From positions 12,400 through 76,399 of the forward strand of contig JAKAGU010000005.1 of assembly GCA_021825655.1 (NCBI GenBank): a DNA stretch of 64,000 nucleotides. Direction: 5' to 3'. The translations under genes and the position numbers were made by a program. Numbering within the stretch: the stretch's first letter is position 1; each line of letters starts with the position of its first letter. The notes beneath the pieces are model-generated. The model made no database searches. It worked only from the letters and a program-made list of their open reading frames with translations, and was not told where the DNA came from. Shown here one piece after another: positions 11,841-51,499 of this stretch. This stretch comes from a bacterium (GTDB lineage Bacteria; Patescibacteriota; Doudnabacteria; UBA920).

Positions 11841-13136
11841 ATGGGTCGTCCAAAAAAGAACCCGACCGCCTCAGGCGGTTATGTGTCCAAAAAAATCCAG
11901 AGCCTGCCGGGCTCTACGGATATTATTACCTCCGCCGATGCGCTGTGGGATATTTTGCTGAAGCGTTTGTCCAGGACCGCCCGGGCGTACGGCTTTAACC
12001 GGGTGGAATCGCCGCTTTTGGAAGAGTCGCGCCTGTTTGAAAGCGCGGGCGCTTTTAACCCCGGGCAGGCAGTGGCCATTTCGGACCAAGCTTATGGCCG
12101 GCCGGTTGTGCTCCGGCCCGCGTTGTTGCCGTCAGTGCTCCGCGCCTATGTCCAGCAAAAAATTTACGAAACTTCTCCTGTCAGCAAATGGTGGTACAGC
12201 GGCTTTACCGTAGCCCAGAAAGAAAAAAGCCAGGCCGCATCGGATTTTAATTTTGGTTTTGAGGTGTTCGGCACGTTTACCCACTTAACCGAAGCCCAGC
12301 TGATTTCCGGCGTCTGGGAGCTGTTCCAGTCTTTGGGGCTCAAGGATTTGGCTTTGGAAATCAACAGTATCGGGGAAGAGGCTTGCCAGCGGGTTTACGA
12401 AGAGGCCTTGGCCGGATACCTGAGCGGCAAAAAATATGAGCTGTGCGACGCCTGCAGCGAGCACTTGAAAGGCAGGGTGTTGAACGTGTTGCGCTGTGAA
12501 AATTTGGACTGCCAGGCTTTGACAGCCGAAGCCCCGACCATTTTGGACTATTTGGATCCGAAAAGCCATAAGCATTTTACCAACATCCTCGAAGCTTTGG
12601 ATGAAATGGGGATTCCTTACCAGCTTAACCACCTGTACAGCGGACCCGAGGGCCACAGCCGCACTAATTTTGTGATAAAGCAAAAAACCAAAACAGGCAG
12701 CCTGGTGCTGGGCGAAGGCGGTTACCATGACGGCGTAATTCAGAACATTTGCGGGAAAAATTTTTGTTCTTTTGGTTTTTACGGCAGCCTGCAGAAAGTT
12801 TACGACCTGCTGACGGCCAGCCGGGTGACGGTTTCCCGCGAGCAGTCCAGCGAAGTTTTTCTGGTGCCTTTGGGCGAACTGGCTTCCAAAAAGGCCCTGC
12901 GGCTGTTCAGGGATTTGATCAGCAGCAAAATTTCTGTTTACGACCATTTTGGCGACGCGGGTGTAAAGAACCAGCTCAAAGCGGCCCAAACCTTCAAAGC
13001 CCCCATTGCCTTGATTATGGGGCAGAAGGAAGCTATGGATGAAATGGTGATTTTGAGGGATGTAAAATCCGGCATGCAGGAAGTTATTTCTTATGATAAA
13101 ATAGTGGAAGAAGTGAAAAAGCGCCTAGGCAAGTAA
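11841..13136 (+). CDS. histidyl-tRNA synthetase-like class II aaRS paralog with apparently degenerate catalytic motifs
   Basis: HisRS-like architecture: catalytic core, insertion domain (EINSIGEEACQ) and a C-terminal anticodon-binding domain. Conserved motifs read LRPALLPSV instead of LRPEGTA, there is no Arg-rich motif 2, and motif 3 reads GGYHDG instead of GGRYDG. Confidence 0.6.
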   Translation: MGRPKKNPTASGGYVSKKIQSLPGSTDIITSADALWDILLKRLSRTARAYGFNRVESPLLEESRLFESAGAFNPGQAVAISDQAYGRPVVLRPALLPSVLRAYVQQKIYETSPVSKWWYSGFTVAQKEKSQAASDFNFGFEVFGTFTHLTEAQLISGVWELFQSLGLKDLALEINSIGEEACQRVYEEALAGYLSGKKYELCDACSEHLKGRVLNVLRCENLDCQALTAEAPTILDYLDPKSHKHFTNILEALDEMGIPYQLNHLYSGPEGHSRTNFVIKQKTKTGSLVLGEGGYHDGVIQNICGKNFCSFGFYGSLQKVYDLLTASRVTVSREQSSEVFLVPLGELASKKALRLFRDLISSKISVYDHFGDAGVKNQLKAAQTFKAPIALIMGQKEAMDEMVILRDVKSGMQEVISYDKIVEEVKKRLGK

Positions 13137-46879: not shown

Positions 46880-47320
46880 ATGGCATCAAGGCATCTTGCC
46901 CGCACCGTGGCCATGCAATCCCTGTTTGAGTGGGATTTTAACGGTCGCAAGGAAGAACTTAAAAAAATTATTGCCACCAACCTGGGCGAGTTCGCTTCGG
47001 ATATTAAGGAGCCGGAGTTCGTGTACGGTTTGGCCGAAGGCGTGGCGGAAAATCTGCCCGCCATTGACCTGGTGATTGCCAAAACCGCACCCGACTGGCC
47101 GGTAGACCAGATACCCGACGTGGACCGCAGCGTTTTGCGTCTAGGGATTTACGAACTGCAGTTTCAAAAACAGGCTCCGCCCAAAGTGGTTATCAACGAA
47201 GCGGTGGAGCTGGCCAAAACCTTCGGGGGCGAGCAGAGCGGCAAGTTTGTGAACGGCGTGCTTGGCACGCTTTACAAGCAGATGCAGGCCGCCGGCGAAA
47301 TTACCGAAGAAAAAAAATAA
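46880..47320 (+). CDS. nusB: transcription antitermination factor NusB
   Basis: [18 protein letters not shown]-terminal helix typical of NusB; terminator AACACTCCTTAAGAGGAGTGTT plus T-run follows. Confidence 0.8.
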
Positions 47321-47361
47321 TTTTTTAACACTCCTTAAGAGGAGTGTTTTTTTAAAATTTT

Positions 47362-47385
47362 GGTTCGAACATCGTTCCATAGGGA
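47362..47385 (+). repeat. left copy of a 24-bp direct repeat GGTTCGAACATCGTTCCATAGGGA
   Basis: 22 of 24 positions identical to the 48840-48863 copy; together they bracket the AT-rich gene. Confidence 0.8.
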
Positions 47386-47491
47386 CTGCTATGACTTTTA
47401 AACCATCCGAAAAGGTGTTTTTTTTATTAATTGACTTTAAATAAAGGGGGTTTTAAACTTAAAGTGGTGTTCATATTTAAAAATAATAAAA

Positions 47492-48787
47492 ATGGCTGAA
47501 GATTATAACGCAGATTTAATTACCCAACTTTTTCTTACTGACGACGTGGAAAAAGCTAAAGAAATTTCAGACGAAATGGTAGGCATAGGGAATCTAATTT
47601 TTCCTCGAATAATATACGAGGCATACAAAAAATTTAAAAACACGTCTAGCTCCCACTATTTTATCTCAGATCTTGCGGGATTTAGGTCACCTGAAGTAGC
47701 AGAAATTATGAAAGAAATAGCCCATGAGGCTACAAAATCTGCTGATTTTGAATTTACACTCGACTACCTGGCAGACATTGAATACTTCGATCCTACTATA
47801 ATCGAAAAAGCTAGCACCTTACTTAAGGACAAGCTATTCCTAAAAGGAACAGATGAGTATGACGTGGAAGCGTGCTTGGCGTATTTAAAAAAATCAAAAA
47901 ATGGCATAAAAGATTTAGAACCCGTATTACAAGCATGCTTTGAAAATGAGGGTCTTGCATACTCCCTAAGAACTAAGGTTCTTCGAGATCTCTTGGTCTC
48001 GAATAAACAACTCATTAACTATTACTACGAAAATTACGATAAAATAAAAAACAAAAAGGCCGAAATAATTTTTGCTGAAGAAATTTCTACATGGCAGGGA
48101 GGGATAATACCAGAACTTCATAAAAAGATTTTAAAAAACGGCTCTAGAAGGGCACAAGAAATCATAGAAGAAGCACAGACAAAAAGAACCAAAACAAAAG
48201 ATCAAGCCGAAAAAAAAGAACAAGAAAAGATAAAAGGTACATACGAAACAGCAGATATTGTTTCCGGCATTGCTGCATTAAGGACAAAGGTTAACAGGAT
48301 CAGCTCGGCTGATAAAAGGTTTGGCTTTCCTTTCTTTGCACAATCGGAAGAATTTTATGAACAAAATAAACCCGCTCAAAATAAAGCCTCTTTAGTGGGT
48401 TATTGTATGGTTCTACGAGAGTTCCTGCAAAAATTTGATGAAGCTATAAAAGATTCCGTGATCCCAGTAGACAAAGCAAAGCAATTTTTACCTGAAATAC
48501 AGGACTGGGGTGGAAGTATTAATAAATTTCACTATCTACTTTTGGATAAAGGTGTAACTGTAGATAAAGGAATTTTCGGTTTAAGAAATATAAATAGACT
48601 TGTTACAAAACTTGCACACCCAAACGAAACACTAGGGGAAGAATTTATTAATTTGTTGACTGAAGAAAAATTATTGGATATGTATACAAAAGACAACTGG
48701 TCACTGTTGCATAGAGAAATATTACTACGATATGAAAAAGTATTAGAAAAATTAATCGCAGCTCTTTCGGAGGGAAGTACTGGCTAA
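47492..48787 (+). CDS. hypothetical helical protein (431 aa) in an AT-rich island
   Basis: Long ORF with K/E/I-rich, AT-biased codon usage (about 35% GC by eye) unlike its neighbours; no motif recognised. Confidence 0.6.
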   Translation: MAEDYNADLITQLFLTDDVEKAKEISDEMVGIGNLIFPRIIYEAYKKFKNTSSSHYFISDLAGFRSPEVAEIMKEIAHEATKSADFEFTLDYLADIEYFDPTIIEKASTLLKDKLFLKGTDEYDVEACLAYLKKSKNGIKDLEPVLQACFENEGLAYSLRTKVLRDLLVSNKQLINYYYENYDKIKNKKAEIIFAEEISTWQGGIIPELHKKILKNGSRRAQEIIEEAQTKRTKTKDQAEKKEQEKIKGTYETADIVSGIAALRTKVNRISSADKRFGFPFFAQSEEFYEQNKPAQNKASLVGYCMVLREFLQKFDEAIKDSVIPVDKAKQFLPEIQDWGGSINKFHYLLLDKGVTVDKGIFGLRNINRLVTKLAHPNETLGEEFINLLTEEKLLDMYTKDNWSLLHREILLRYEKVLEKLIAALSEGSTG

Positions 48788-48839
48788 TATTAGTTACAGT
48801 TCCAATTTAGTCAAAAAAGGCTGACGTTTTCTCAACTTC

Positions 48840-48863
48840 GGTTTGAACATCGTTTCATAGGGA
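48840..48863 (+). repeat. right copy of the 24-bp direct repeat GGTTTGAACATCGTTTCATAGGGA
   Basis: See the left copy. Confidence 0.8.
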
Positions 48864-49102
48864 ATATCTGAAATAAATTATATTATTTGATTGTAGGAAC
48901 GATAGGAAAGCAGAAAATACCTAGTTTTGGCTTTCGCCTGCGGGTTTTTTCTCTTCTGGCTATACAAGTTTTTACCCCGGAACCCAAGCCCTGGACAACC
49001 GGCATAAAATTCCTCTAATTTGTAGTTGATTTATTGGAATAGTGCTATAATATGTAGGCATTTGACCCAAGATAATTAACCCATAAAAGGAGACCTACGC
49101 AT

Positions 49103-49396
49103 ATGAACAAGCTGCAATTTACGGAACAATTGGCGGCCAAATTGGGCATTACCGTCAGCGAAGCCGAAAGGTATTTGAACACCTTTATCCAAATGGTTTA
49201 CGATGTGCTTAGAAACGGTGATAAAGTAAACATTTCAGGCTTTGGCCAGTTCAGCGTATCCCATCGCGCTCCCAGAATCGGTGTTAACCCCCGGAACCCT
49301 ACCCAGAAGATTACCATTCCGGAATTGAATACGCCGAAGTTCAAGGCTGGCGAGGCTTTCAAGGAAGCGGTGAAGCTGAGAAGCCCCCAGGGTTAG
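49103..49396 (+). CDS. hupB: DNA-binding protein HU
   Basis: HU/IHF fold with beta-arm (GFGQFSVSHRAPRIGVNPRNPTQKITIP); extended -10 TGCTATAAT upstream. Confidence 0.9.
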   Translation: MNKLQFTEQLAAKLGITVSEAERYLNTFIQMVYDVLRNGDKVNISGFGQFSVSHRAPRIGVNPRNPTQKITIPELNTPKFKAGEAFKEAVKLRSPQG

Positions 49397-49487: not shown

Positions 49488-49562
49488 GCGGGTATCGTAT
49501 AATGGTTATTATCTCAGTTTTCCAAACTGATGATGCGGGTTCGATTCCCGCTACCCGCTCCA
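49488..49562 (+). tRNA. tRNA-Gly (anticodon UCC)
   Basis: Acceptor GCGGGTA/TACCCGC, anticodon stem TCAGT/ACTGA with loop TTTCCAA, T-arm GGTTCGATTCC, CCA encoded. Confidence 0.9.
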
Positions 49563-50152: not shown

Positions 50153-50290
50153 ATGTGCATATCAAGAGAGCAGTTAGGGAACTAGCCCGATGACCTGCCG
50201 GCAACCTGTCCTTTTATGGATAAGGTGCCACCTCTAGCCCTTCACAGGGAAAGATAATTTTTATACCCGTGAAGAACGGGATTTTTTATT
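50153..50290 (+). promoter_or_regulatory. SAM-I (S-box) riboswitch with an intrinsic terminator, leader of metK
   Basis: ATCAAGAGAGCAG..AGGGAACTAGCCCGATGACCTGCCGGCAACC...GGTGCCA matches conserved S-box positions; the expression-platform terminator is CCCGTGAAGAACGGG plus TTTTTTATT. Confidence 0.8.
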
Positions 50291-50305: not shown

Positions 50306-51499
50306 ATGAAAAAACTGTTTTCTTCCGAGTCCGTGACCGAAGGCCATCCGGATAAAATGGCTGACCAGATTAGCGATGCCGTGTTGGACGCTATTTTAAA
50401 AGCCGATCCCCGCGGCCGCGTGGCTGTGGAAACATTGCTGACCAACGGCGTGTGCGTTGTGGCGGGCGAAGTCACCACCAAGACCTACGTGGATATTCCC
50501 AAGGTGGCGCGCGAGGTCATTAAGGATATTGGCTACACCAATGCGGAGTACGGCTTCCAGTGGGAAACCTCCGGTTTGCTTGTGGCCATTAAGGAACAGT
50601 CTTCCGATATTGCCATGGGCGTGGATGCGTTCGTTAAAGGCAAGAGCGGGGGCGTGATAAAAGAGGATTTGGAAAAAATCGGCGCGGGCGACCAGGGGCT
50701 GATGTTCGGCCTGGCTACGGATGAAACCAAAGAGTACATGCCCTTGCCGATTGTGCTGGCGCATAAATTAACCCAGCGCCTGGCTTATGTGAGAAAACAC
50801 GGTATTGTAAAAGGGCTCCGTCCGGACGGCAAAAGCCAGGTGACCGTGGAGTACAACGGCGACAAGGCCAAGCGCGTGCACACGGTGCTAATTGCGGCCC
50901 AGCATGATCCGGATGTGGACAGCGAGAAACTGAAAAGCGAGATTATCAAACAGGTGATAAAAAAAGTCATTCCCACTAAGCTTTTGGACAAGCATACCCG
51001 GATCTTAGTTAACTCCACGGGCCGCTTTGTGATTGGCGGGCCGCAGGGCGATACGGGGCTGACCGGCCGCAAGATTATTGTGGACACTTATGGCGGCATG
51101 GGCCGGCACGGCGGCGGCTGTTTTTCCGGCAAGGACCCCTCCAAGGTGGACAGGTCGGGCTCTTACATGGCGCGCTATGTGGCCAAAAATTTAGTGGCTG
51201 CGGGTTTGGCCAAAAAACTGGAAGTCCAGGTGGCTTATGCCATTGGGGTGCCTGAGCCTTTGAGTGTGCGCGTGGACACTTTTGGCACGGGCAAAATTCC
51301 CGATGATACCATTGCGGGCATTGTTGGGAAGGTTTTTGATTTGCGGCCGGGCATGATTATTAAGCAGTTAAATTTGCGGCGGCCGATTTACCGCCAGGTA
51401 GCGGCTTATGGCCACTTTGGCCGCAATGACTTAAAGTTGCCCTGGGAAAAACTGGATAAAGTTAAAGAAATCAAAAAACTGGCCAAATTAAGGAAATAA
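50306..51499 (+). CDS. metK: S-adenosylmethionine synthetase
   Basis: [25 protein letters not shown] and GGGAFSGKDP-type motifs. Confidence 0.95.

Follow-up and report, generated by a model that had tools for sequence, protein, structure and literature searches.

An AT-rich gene of apparent foreign origin in place of a surface-protein gene at the nusB–hupB gap of a patescibacterial genome

A single AT-rich gene in a bacterium of the lineage Doudnabacteria (Patescibacteriota) lies between two near-identical 24-bp direct repeats, within a window of 64,000 nucleotides (the whole stretch of DNA analysed). A preliminary description, made from the sequence alone, read this arrangement as the signature of a site-specific insertion by att-core duplication or of cassette capture. 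Two questions are thereby raised: whether the gene is a newcomer at this site, and whether the repeats record the event that brought it there.

Replacement of a surface-protein gene between nusB and hupB

The gene (47492–48787, forward strand, defined by ORF translation) encodes a protein of 431 amino acids, here called X431. Its reading frame has a GC content of 0.35 against 0.51 in its surroundings and a GC3 of 0.287 against 0.61–0.68 in eleven host genes, and it falls within the lowest-GC kilobase of the window. A promoter-like site (TTGACT-17-TAAACT, 47431–47459, forward strand), assigned by consensus match only, is located 33 nt upstream of the start codon. Another 431-aa ORF of the window (11841–13136) was considered as a paralogue and is unrelated. 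Pfam matches identify the left host gene as nusB (46880–47320, forward strand; NusB family), with synteny in 80 relatives, and the right host gene as hupB (49103–49396, forward strand), of the HU family. Both the compositional contrast and the identity of the neighbours had been described correctly.

The gene order around the locus, rpmF-nusB-[variable]-hupB-p172-metK, is conserved. In sister strains, which encode an identical hupB protein, the gene preceding hupB specifies an LTD-domain surface protein (rpmF-nusB-LTD-hupB). More distant relatives have hupB directly after nusB or an LTD gene between the two; hupB is also present in about 35 of the 80 nusB-relative loci, and the gap there is either empty or LTD-bearing. 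None of the 80 carries X431 in this gap. Judged from these sequences, gene content varies in the nusB–hupB gap, which makes it a hot spot within this Patescibacteria lineage.

BLAST break points (taken against L113–L116 together with L013, L014, L016, L018 and L019), junction alignments and the GC profile delimit an AT-rich segment of 1,557 bp that is imported and specific to this strain (47359–48915, unstranded). On its left, the intrinsic terminator hairpin of nusB (47327–47348, forward strand) is the last host sequence common to the sister strains, with homology ending at 47358. For locus L113, a single contig with the order rpmF-nusB-LTD-hupB, homology to the window stops at 47358 and restarts at 48916, and five contigs encoding an identical HU protein, with an LTD gene upstream, align to the window only from 48918 onward. 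Both junctions are placed to within a few bases, and alignment to the sister loci puts the body of their LTD gene at the position that 47359–48915 occupies in the window. On the left junction side, three independent assemblies break at 47351–47369, which could reflect a co-occurring variant that differs exactly there. The last 52 bp of the segment (48864–48915, unstranded) have no counterpart in the sister strains. As read from the sequence, this tail holds GGAACGAT, an inverted copy of ATCGTTCC in the left repeat.

Beyond the right junction, 92 bp are left of the LTD gene, all from its 3′ end (48916–49007, forward strand, from alignment to sister strains). This remnant keeps the last 29 LTD codons, is preceded by stop codons and encodes YLVLAFACGFFLFWLYKFLPRNPSPGQPA*, which is one residue off the C terminus found in sister strain L014; no trace of a relocated LTD gene was found elsewhere in the 64-kb window. 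Because the LTD gene present in the sisters has been replaced here, and because X431 is found at this site in none of the 80 relatives, the conclusion that X431 was acquired horizontally and recently at a variable hot spot is well supported.

Two 24-bp direct repeats inside the imported DNA

The left repeat, GGTTCGAACATCGTTCCATAGGGA (47362–47385, forward strand), starts 3 bp inside the left junction. The right repeat, GGTTTGAACATCGTTTCATAGGGA (48840–48863, forward strand), begins 52 nt past the X431 stop codon, and a further 52 bp separate its end from the right junction. The two agree at 22 of 24 positions, both mismatches being C/T, exactly as the preliminary description had it. Their similarity reaches at most 30 nt (26 of 30 matching) and goes no further even when gaps are allowed. 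These are the only copies in the 64 kb at three or fewer mismatches on either strand, with 0 expected from 100 shuffles, and the ungapped flank-versus-flank score is 18 against a shuffle maximum of 13. Chance is ruled out as their source by these shuffle comparisons, and an assembly artefact is excluded since six assemblies of this strain, made independently, all contain the two copies. The left copy contains an imperfect palindrome, TCGAAC-ATC-GTTCCA. Both repeats lie inside the strain-specific imported DNA.

Several simple identities for the 24-mer were set aside. As an RNA element or terminator it has no Rfam match, and its hairpin potential, calculated with flanks, is no better than that of shuffled sequences (z = −0.4 and +0.5). 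As a tRNA fragment it offers only a T-loop-like octamer, GGTTCGAA, with no T-stem complement; it does not match tRNA-Gln 3′ ends or any other tRNA 3′ end. A transposon or insertion sequence finds no footing either: there are no inverted repeats at the ends of 47359–48915, X431 matches no transposase family, and both 24-mers are in foreign DNA. Repeats of 24 bp are also longer than typical target duplications. The opposite picture raised in the preliminary description, in which the 24-mer is a common intergenic motif and the gene is conserved in place, does not hold, as the motif is not common in the sequences searched for it (the window, 1.1 Mb of related loci and IMG/VR) and X431 is not conserved at this position.

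The more demanding possibility is that the 24-mers are attL and attR, formed when a circular X431 cassette entered a chromosomal attB through a recombinase supplied in trans by the host Xer system or a distant integrase. Such an event predicts an empty-site junction of the form ...GTGTTTTTTTAAAATTTT + GGTTYGAACATCGTTYCATAGGGA + ATATCTGAAATAAATT..., that is, the nusB terminator, one 24-mer and ATATCTGAAAT...hupB, together with a circle junction of the form ...CGTTTTCTCAACTTC + 24-mer + CTGCTATGACTTTTAAACC.... The repeat is indeed highly non-random and directly oriented, its left copy is 3 bp from the left junction, its short imperfect palindrome resembles a recombinase site, assemblies from three samples break at the left repeat, and the X431 family is tied to integrative elements elsewhere. 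However, no 24-mer (six or fewer mismatches) occurs at the sister loci (L110–L116, L013 and L014) or the 80 nusB-relative loci, a comparison in which no site is a truly empty one from a relative of more than 95% identity, and none was found in 1.1 Mb of related loci at the same threshold. The more distant relatives do have nusB followed directly by hupB, the empty arrangement for which the preliminary description had proposed looking, but no copy of the 24-mer is present there. The right junction lies 52 bp past the right copy, so this route requires an unsampled intermediate ancestor. Comparable flanking repeats or a similar motif were seen at none of the 12 other X431-family loci, and the motif is absent from IMG/VR.

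Nor is a candidate enzyme close by. Gene calls covering about 5 kb to each side of X431 include no recombinase, in agreement with the preliminary description, and tblastn of the whole window for the serine type found no large serine recombinase. An attB core at the relatives' sites, coincidence of repeat and junction on the right side and a nearby integrase, the features of an integrative element with an att core, are thus all missing, and we consider an attL/attR origin of the repeats unlikely. What stood of the earlier interpretation is the insertion itself, supported by the LTD gene in the sisters and its 92-bp remnant. Its reading of the repeats as scars of att-core duplication or cassette capture is not supported, given a 24-mer that is missing from sister sites, copies that are both within the imported DNA and the lack of repeats at all 12 other loci.

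The repeats might instead be cis-acting sites for an operator-binding or nucleoid protein that regulates X431, hupB or both, and not products of recombination. An imperfect palindrome is present in the motif, the left copy precedes the −35-like hexamer of X431 by 46 nt, and the lack of a hairpin or RNA-family signal makes a role at the DNA level likelier than one at the RNA level. Against this, a similar motif is near none of the 12 homologues, there is no second palindromic half-site arrangement, and the right copy, which precedes the promoter region of hupB by about 190 nt, is in DNA that the relatives lack even though their hupB promoter is conserved. A regulatory role of this kind seems improbable.

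The X431 protein and its family

X431 matches no family in Pfam, NCBIfam, PHROGs or PADLOC; with the PADLOC v2 defence HMMs, whose coverage of systems ends in 2023, 0 families were obtained at E values up to 1. Searches with a sequence profile against PDB, with Pfam for each family member, with a further profile against 5.8 billion proteins for annotation and with tblastn against plasmids and phages were likewise empty or returned noise.

The predicted structure is all-helical (pLDDT 88 for the whole protein and 91.5 for its C-terminal domain), in keeping with the earlier account of a helical protein with no recognisable motif. It comprises a HEAT/ARM-like solenoid (residues ~1–216, with thirteen short helices between residues 3 and 216 at pLDDT ~71–96), a long helix (219–273) and a C-terminal helical domain (~275–431). 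Foldseek superposes the N-terminal ~230 residues on alphaRep and on designed ARM proteins, at a probability of 0.99–1.0 and a target TM of 0.5–0.6. The corresponding E values are weak (0.008 or worse) and no Pfam repeat is matched, which places the solenoid with HEAT/ARM proteins at the fold level only. Full-length X431 retrieves only generic HEAT/ARM/TPR solenoids from PDB and BFVD, and for the C-terminal domain (170 residues) PDB contains nothing better than E = 0.6. The remote-homology and structure searches that had been suggested gave a generic HEAT/ARM solenoid for the N-terminal half and no defence match in PADLOC.

Seven residues are conserved across the family: N268, Q291, R309, N344, H376, H407 and Y414. 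A HEPN RNase (four-helix, R-x(4-6)-H) was considered and rejected, as Foldseek matches to HEPN toxins are non-significant (E 0.6–2.3, probability 0.15–0.30). X431 does carry R369-x6-H376, in which H376 is conserved in the family and R369 is not. A tyrosine recombinase or type IB topoisomerase was rejected as well, since the catalytic-domain fold with the R-K-(H)-R-H/W-Y active site was not found in X431. On the strength of the model, X431 would be soluble and would combine a HEAT-like scaffold with a novel helical domain in which an Asn/Gln/Arg/His/His/Tyr set is conserved. Such a protein may have a putative accessory role that benefits the host, for example in exclusion or defence, exerted by partner binding. 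The reading of X431 as defence or accessory cargo is plausible.

The protein belongs to an unannotated family of Patescibacteria. When clustered at 50% identity, the family has about 124 clusters, nearly all of about 430 aa and matched over their full length. No relatives were found in IMG/VR, INPHARED or BFVD. In every locus examined X431 is an AT-rich single-gene islet. Its best database homologue is 57% identical, with the sister genomes included in the database, and family members are mutually 45–57% identical. Deep divergence of this order (45–57%) combined with AT-richness everywhere is a poor fit to simple recent transfer in each locus.

The same combination favours a reversed history for the window, in which X431 is an old resident that owes its AT-richness to gene-level constraint and the LTD gene of the sisters is the newcomer, since AT-richness in every host despite such divergence points to a maintained composition and not to repeated recent transfer. 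However, the 3′ end of the LTD gene is kept in the window as a dead remnant, and the LTD gene must therefore have preceded X431 at the site. The gap across relatives is LTD-bearing or empty, with X431 in 0 of 80, and no X431 homologue exceeds 57% identity although sister genomes are in the database. The reversed history is scarcely credible.

The 13 contexts of X431 share no flanking sequence except tRNA-Gln, and no conserved non-coding flanks are present among the homologues. A tRNA-Gln gene is immediately upstream of X431 in 5 of the 12 other loci (L008, L027, L122, L125 and L127) and a tRNA-Glu gene is in this position in L123; remnants of the tRNA-Gln 3′ end lie just upstream in L122, L027 and L125. 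In one locus, L008, tRNA-Gln and X431 are followed by a gene for a large serine integrase (E = 2.7e-61 to a PHROG integrase), by small ORFs and by 17 nt repeated from the 3′ end of the tRNA, which together form an element of 5.35 kb. Within it, X431 has a GC content of 0.29 against 0.39–0.49 for the rest of the element. Tested as a tRNA-associated island, L008 qualifies by its 17-nt repeat 5.35 kb from the tRNA and the window locus does not. The nearest tRNA in the window is a tRNA-Gly (49488–49562), past hupB and 625 bp further on. The tRNA-Gln linkage could also reflect function and not integration. A search of the literature on mobile elements in Patescibacteria found nothing relevant.

These contexts also bear on whether X431 might be the mobilising enzyme itself, a new recombinase or homing protein of a one-gene element that has the 24-mers as its sites and the tRNA-Gln 3′ flank as its usual target. 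The strong preference of the single-gene islets for tRNA-Gln across 13 unrelated contexts, conserved Arg/His/His/Tyr residues near the C terminus and the lack of another recombinase in most loci are compatible with this idea. Yet neither domain shows a recombinase, nuclease or topoisomerase fold in Foldseek, a HEAT-like scaffold makes up half of the protein, the other loci have no terminal repeats, and the intact L008 element has its own serine integrase. That X431 mobilises its own gene is very unlikely; we give similarly little credence to the wider proposal that the family, far from being passive cargo, drives a minimal mobile unit of one gene or has tRNA-Gln as the target of its action. 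If it were true, a previously unrecognised helical enzyme with the seven conserved residues would send its own gene to the tRNA-Gln 3′ flank, with the window repeats as recombination sites at a secondary target. This would explain the single-gene islets, the many loci with no recombinase and the persistence of AT-richness in every host.

Proposed entry of the unit and comparison with known systems

X431 is best read as moron-like cargo, and the account that we favour, as reasonably probable in its entirety, is that an imported moron-like unit replaced the LTD gene and that the repeats came with the DNA. A self-contained transcription unit, consisting of the promoter-like site and one gene, would have entered recently as 47359–48915 and displaced nearly all of the variable gene for the LTD-domain surface protein. 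In this account the family usually resides in integrative elements at tRNA-Gln, at the end nearest the tRNA. One intact example (L008) encodes a large serine integrase and has 17 nt repeated from the tRNA 3′ end as its boundary; in other loci X431 alone persists beside a tRNA or a tRNA 3′ remnant. The window copy would have landed at a different site, with no recombinase gene found near it, and its likely route was illegitimate or short-homology recombination of incoming DNA as opposed to canonical site-specific integration. The 24-mers most likely arrived inside the imported DNA, as a flanking motif of the donor, itself unsampled, or as the scar of an earlier event there. Alternatively, a Campbell-type crossover may have occurred at ~24–30 bp of homology in an unsampled immediate ancestor. 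The position of the left repeat, 3 bp from the left junction, gives that side an att-like appearance, which counts against the account favoured here.

Morons are accessory cargo of prophages and islands with their own promoter and odd composition, such as bor and lom of lambda. X431 resembles them as a single autonomous transcription unit with a composition unlike that of the host and of the rest of the L008 element, and in lying beside the att end of an integrative element and outlasting the remainder of it. Unlike morons, it has no phage context in IMG/VR, INPHARED or BFVD and no clear terminator after the gene, and the window copy is outside any recognisable element. Islands that target tRNA genes usually encode a tyrosine integrase. 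L008 is alike in its tRNA-Gln, 17-nt tRNA 3′ repeat and integrase, and other loci have tRNA-Gln 3′ remnants, but the L008 integrase is a large serine recombinase. The window copy differs further from such islands in that it is not beside a tRNA, neither of its repeats derives from a tRNA and there is no integrase close by.

One gene between 24-bp repeats with no integrase most resembles the Xer-dependent modules. In these, which include the pdif modules of Acinetobacter plasmids and IMEX elements, sites of ~28 bp enclose a single gene or a few genes with no recombinase of their own, and host enzymes act in trans. Compared by eye, the 24-mer seems to lack the 11-6-11 two-arm architecture of dif and shows only the palindrome TCGAAC-ATC-GTTCCA, with 6-bp arms (5 of 6 paired) and a 3-nt spacer. 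Sites of pdif modules are inverted whereas the 24-mers are direct, and neither a second module nor another copy of the site was found. Integron cassettes are likewise single genes of foreign composition between short repeats with no recombinase of their own. Their attC sites, however, are imperfect inverted repeats that fold as hairpins, and the 24-mer does not fold; the cassettes are usually promoterless, and the X431 unit has a promoter-like site. The X431 locus also differs from integrons in having no IntI and no array, with no integrase found near. At the protein level, the N-terminal part of X431 is like HEAT, ARM and alphaRep proteins with no sequence-family match, and the C-terminal 170 residues have no PDB counterpart.

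Gene flow in the candidate phyla radiation, with its tiny genomes and few recognisable mobile elements, is poorly charted. The locus provides a clean before-and-after view in which the gene for a surface protein was swapped for an imported gene at a conserved nusB–hupB hot spot. It also reveals a well-populated, unannotated family with a confidently predicted structure and a C-terminal domain that has no solved counterpart, and this family is tightly associated with integration sites at tRNA-Gln and with one or more elements that encode a serine integrase. Should its members turn out to act in defence or exclusion, they would constitute a single-gene system specific to these episymbiotic bacteria.

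An AT-rich gene at the nusB–hupB site

The open reading frame called X431 (47492–48787, + strand) encodes 431 amino acids and lies between nusB (46880–47320) and the HU gene hupB (49103–49396), bracketed by two copies of a 24-bp direct repeat (the 24-mer). The AT-rich gene reported in the preliminary description is confirmed, with a GC content of 0.35 against 0.51 in the surroundings and a GC3 of 0.287 against 0.61–0.68 for eleven host genes; the lowest-GC kilobase of the window contains this reading frame. The GC3 deficit therefore reflects foreign composition at synonymous sites and not merely the effect of a K/E-rich protein. A second reading frame of exactly 431 codons, downstream of tRNA-Val (window 11841–13136, +), is unrelated to X431 (BLASTP E = 1).

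Searching for exact matches to the neighbouring L32, NusB and HU proteins recovered sister strains whose flanks match the window at 80–95% nucleotide identity. On one contig (L113) the whole sister order is visible: rpmF, nusB, a gene for a 733-aa LTD-domain surface protein, and hupB. Homology between the window and four sister contigs (L113–L116) continues across the nusB terminator as far as 47358 and restarts at 48916, and five further contigs with an identical HU protein have the LTD gene upstream and align to the window from 48918 only. Window positions 48916–49007 still code YLVLAFACGFFLFWLYKFLPRNPSPGQPA followed by a stop codon. Save for one residue, this peptide is the membrane anchor that ends the LTD protein of sister contig L014, and stop codons precede the remnant. 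The remnant, together with the sister arrangement, indicates that an LTD gene preceded X431 at the site. A 1,557-bp segment (47359–48915) now stands in place of the LTD body, which spans roughly 2.1 kb in L113. Thus, the earlier proposal of a foreign inserted gene is well supported and can be refined to a gene replacement with mapped junctions.

We also compared 80 more distant relatives, both Doudnabacteria-like and other Patescibacteria, whose NusB proteins are 54–69% identical to that of the window. The closer ones retain the order rpmF, nusB, gap, hupB, p172, metK. In some relatives (for example, L033, L049 and L065) nothing lies in the gap, and others (L030–L032, L036, L042, L043 and L053) have an LTD gene there; this varied content marks the site as a hot spot of gene-content variation. 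The LTD protein of the relatives' gap (equivalent to window 47321–49102) has a C-terminal membrane anchor. None of the 80 loci carries an X431 homologue, and X431 is therefore specific to the window strain. No database homologue exceeds 57% identity even though a sister genome (GCA_023473845.1) is included, so we infer that the sister strains, represented by incomplete MAGs, probably lack X431. Farther along the window, a SAM riboswitch (RF00162, 55 bits; 50156–50260, +) lies directly upstream of metK (50306–51499), an ordinary regulatory arrangement.

The X431 protein family

As the preliminary description had noted, X431 has no recognisable motif: it matches nothing in Pfam, NCBIfam, PHROGs or PADLOC. 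A PDB sequence-profile search, Pfam scans of 31 family members, and plasmid and phage records were equally blank. At the level of 90%-identity clusters X431 has 33 homologues, the best 57% identical, and 124 representatives of the 50%-identity clusters match it, 75 of them at E values up to 1e-30. Nearly all of the latter matches are about 425–440 aa long and align end to end with X431, the few named homologues belong to Candidatus Buchananbacteria and Paceibacterota, and a second profile search made no additions. Judged by sequence, these proteins are a real family. Members share only 45–57% identity, yet are AT-rich in every host, a combination at odds with simple recent transfer and with ordinary amelioration alike; it points either to a maintained composition or to heavy undersampling of the donors.

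The AlphaFold2 model of X431 (31-sequence alignment, pLDDT 88) bears out the predicted all-helical protein. Residues 3–216 form a solenoid of thirteen short helices, followed by a 55-residue helix (219–273) and a C-terminal helical domain. Foldseek searches of the PDB with the N-terminal half return only alphaRep, designed-ARM and HEAT proteins (probability up to 1.0, E of 0.008 or worse), and a BFVD fold search returns repeat proteins only. The C-terminal domain, modelled alone with a pLDDT of 91.5 and a pTM of 0.88, finds nothing in the PDB better than E = 0.6, and its resemblances to TetR-like and HEPN-toxin-like bundles are weak and not significant. The expectation of defence cargo drew no PADLOC match.

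Ten polar residues are conserved across 113 full-length members (N6, E28, H55, N268, Q291, R309, N344, H376, H407 and Y414), and the C-terminal clustering of most of them hints at a predicted binding or catalytic site. An R-K-R-H-Y pattern like that of tyrosine recombinases and topoisomerase IB, suggested by the alignment of close homologues, was rejected as a sign of membership, as only H407 and Y414 are conserved family-wide and the fold search returns no such fold.

Another organism from the same sample as the window strain (ERZ27237554) carries a second family member, P0032 (39% identical; contigs L026 and L025, 6001–7269 in the latter). It adjoins an Mrr-like endonuclease that bears a zinc ribbon; upstream lie a large AAA_11/AAA_12 helicase and a DUF2779 protein, and these surroundings look like a defence island.

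Association with tRNA-Gln

Thirteen genomic contexts were compared: the window and L008, L010, L025, L027, L028, L117, L119, L122, L123, L125, L127 and L128. In every locus X431 forms an AT-rich islet matching the extent of the reading frame (gene GC 0.28–0.41 against 0.37–0.58 in the rest of the locus). With X431 masked, a tRNA-Gln gene is the sole sequence common to any two loci; non-coding flanks show no conservation, and flanking direct repeats above chance occur in none of the 12 non-window loci. The tRNA-Gln gene lies directly upstream on the same strand in five of these 12 (L008, L027, L122, L125 and L127; gaps of 43–376 nt), and a tRNA-Glu gene does so in L123. X431 and two homologues (starts at 47492, L008 6001 and L127 5001) have A-rich leaders without a Shine-Dalgarno sequence, while neighbouring hupB carries AAGGAG. 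The distance from tRNA-Gln to the start codon of the homologue is just 43 nt in L127, and the two may be transcribed together.

The linkage may reflect a functional tie between X431 and tRNA-Gln. Most simply, however, it reflects integration-site specificity, because remnants of tRNA 3′ ends and one whole element accompany the genes. Between tRNA-Gln and the homologue, L122 has 18 nt identical to the tRNA 3′ end, and L027 and L125 have degenerate tRNA-Gln 3′ ends. L008 repeats 17 nt of the tRNA-Gln 3′ end 5.35 kb downstream of the tRNA (direct repeat 5793–5809/11143–11159), and this second copy bounds an element comprising X431, four small reading frames and a large serine recombinase in convergent orientation. 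The recombinase has Resolvase, Recombinase and Zn_ribbon_recom domains and matches a PHROG integrase family (E = 2.7e-61). Duplication of a tRNA 3′ end is more typical of tyrosine integrases, whereas this element combines such a repeat with a large serine integrase. An RNase P RNA (RF00010, 151 bits; L008 5242–5642, −) lies immediately upstream of the integration-site tRNA-Gln.

X431 is directly inside the tRNA-proximal end in all tRNA-linked loci. Among the remaining neighbours are an Mrr-like endonuclease in L025, a Bro-N protein in L010 and NYN-domain proteins in both L010 and L028. The evidence best supports reading X431 as moron-like cargo carried by tRNA-Gln-targeting integrative elements in Patescibacteria. 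It tends to be kept while the rest of the element decays, which suggests that X431 benefits its host.

The 24-bp repeats and the route of entry

The left (GGTTCGAACATCGTTCCATAGGGA, 47362–47385) and right (GGTTTGAACATCGTTTCATAGGGA, 48840–48863) 24-mers lie where the preliminary description placed them and agree at 22 of 24 positions, each mismatch being C/T. Their similarity reaches 26/30 at most, a gapped alignment of the two X431 flanks finding none past this, and the ungapped flank-against-flank score is 18 (shuffle maximum 13). Six independently assembled contigs of the window strain carry both copies, so the pair is not an assembly artefact. The window holds only these two (≤3 mismatches, both strands; shuffles expect none), which, with X431 in 0/80 relatives, speaks against a common motif beside a gene conserved at the site. 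No copy was found in L113, in IMG/VR or, at ≤6 mismatches, in 1.1 Mb of fetched loci (sister sites, 80 nusB-relative loci and 12 X431-family loci), and no 24-mer-like motif occurs in those 12.

Rfam gives no match, and the 24-mer with its flanks folds no better than shuffled sequence; these results weigh against a terminator, a known RNA or a hairpin of the attC kind. A tRNA origin was rejected: a T-loop-like octamer (GGTTCGAA) is the sole match and lacks a complementary T-stem, and tRNA-Gln 3′ ends do not match the 24-mer. The repeat contains a short imperfect palindrome (TCGAAC-ATC-GTTCCA), and an inverted 8-mer (GGAACGAT) lies in the 52-bp tail to the right of the right copy; either may be fortuitous.

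The repeats had been read as an att-core duplication, in which case the unoccupied site should hold the core once and each junction should carry a repeat. This signature was seen neither at the window site nor at the sampled sister sites. Both 24-mers fall within strain-specific DNA, the left beginning 3 bp past the left junction and the right stopping 52 bp short of the right one. Comparison with relatives did reveal nusB–hupB sites without X431, some with an empty gap, and none with a 24-mer; no test run supports the duplication. It keeps some room because the immediate ancestor may differ from all sampled sisters. The main alternatives, unlikely even when taken together, are that a circular intermediate crossed over in Campbell fashion at about 24–30 bp of homology, or that site-specific integration proper took place in an ancestor outside the sample. 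Three independent assemblies (contigs L024, L021 and L023) end at 47351–47369, by the left junction and repeat, while others read through. These ends may mark a co-occurring variant, LTD-type or empty, that diverges at the left junction, or equally a coverage drop at the switch from GC to AT.

As the preliminary description had noted, no recombinase gene was found near X431. The copy was probably imported from an unsampled, lower-GC donor and took over the LTD gene position at the hot spot; the incoming DNA would have recombined illegitimately or through short homology. Most simply, the 24-mers would have arrived with it as a donor motif flanking X431, the right-hand junction then forming 52 bp past the second copy.

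The window case belongs to a known kind of event, in which a hot spot gains cargo by horizontal transfer; X431 itself is new and unannotated. The main value of the finding lies in the X431 family and its association with tRNA-Gln, more than in the repeats.
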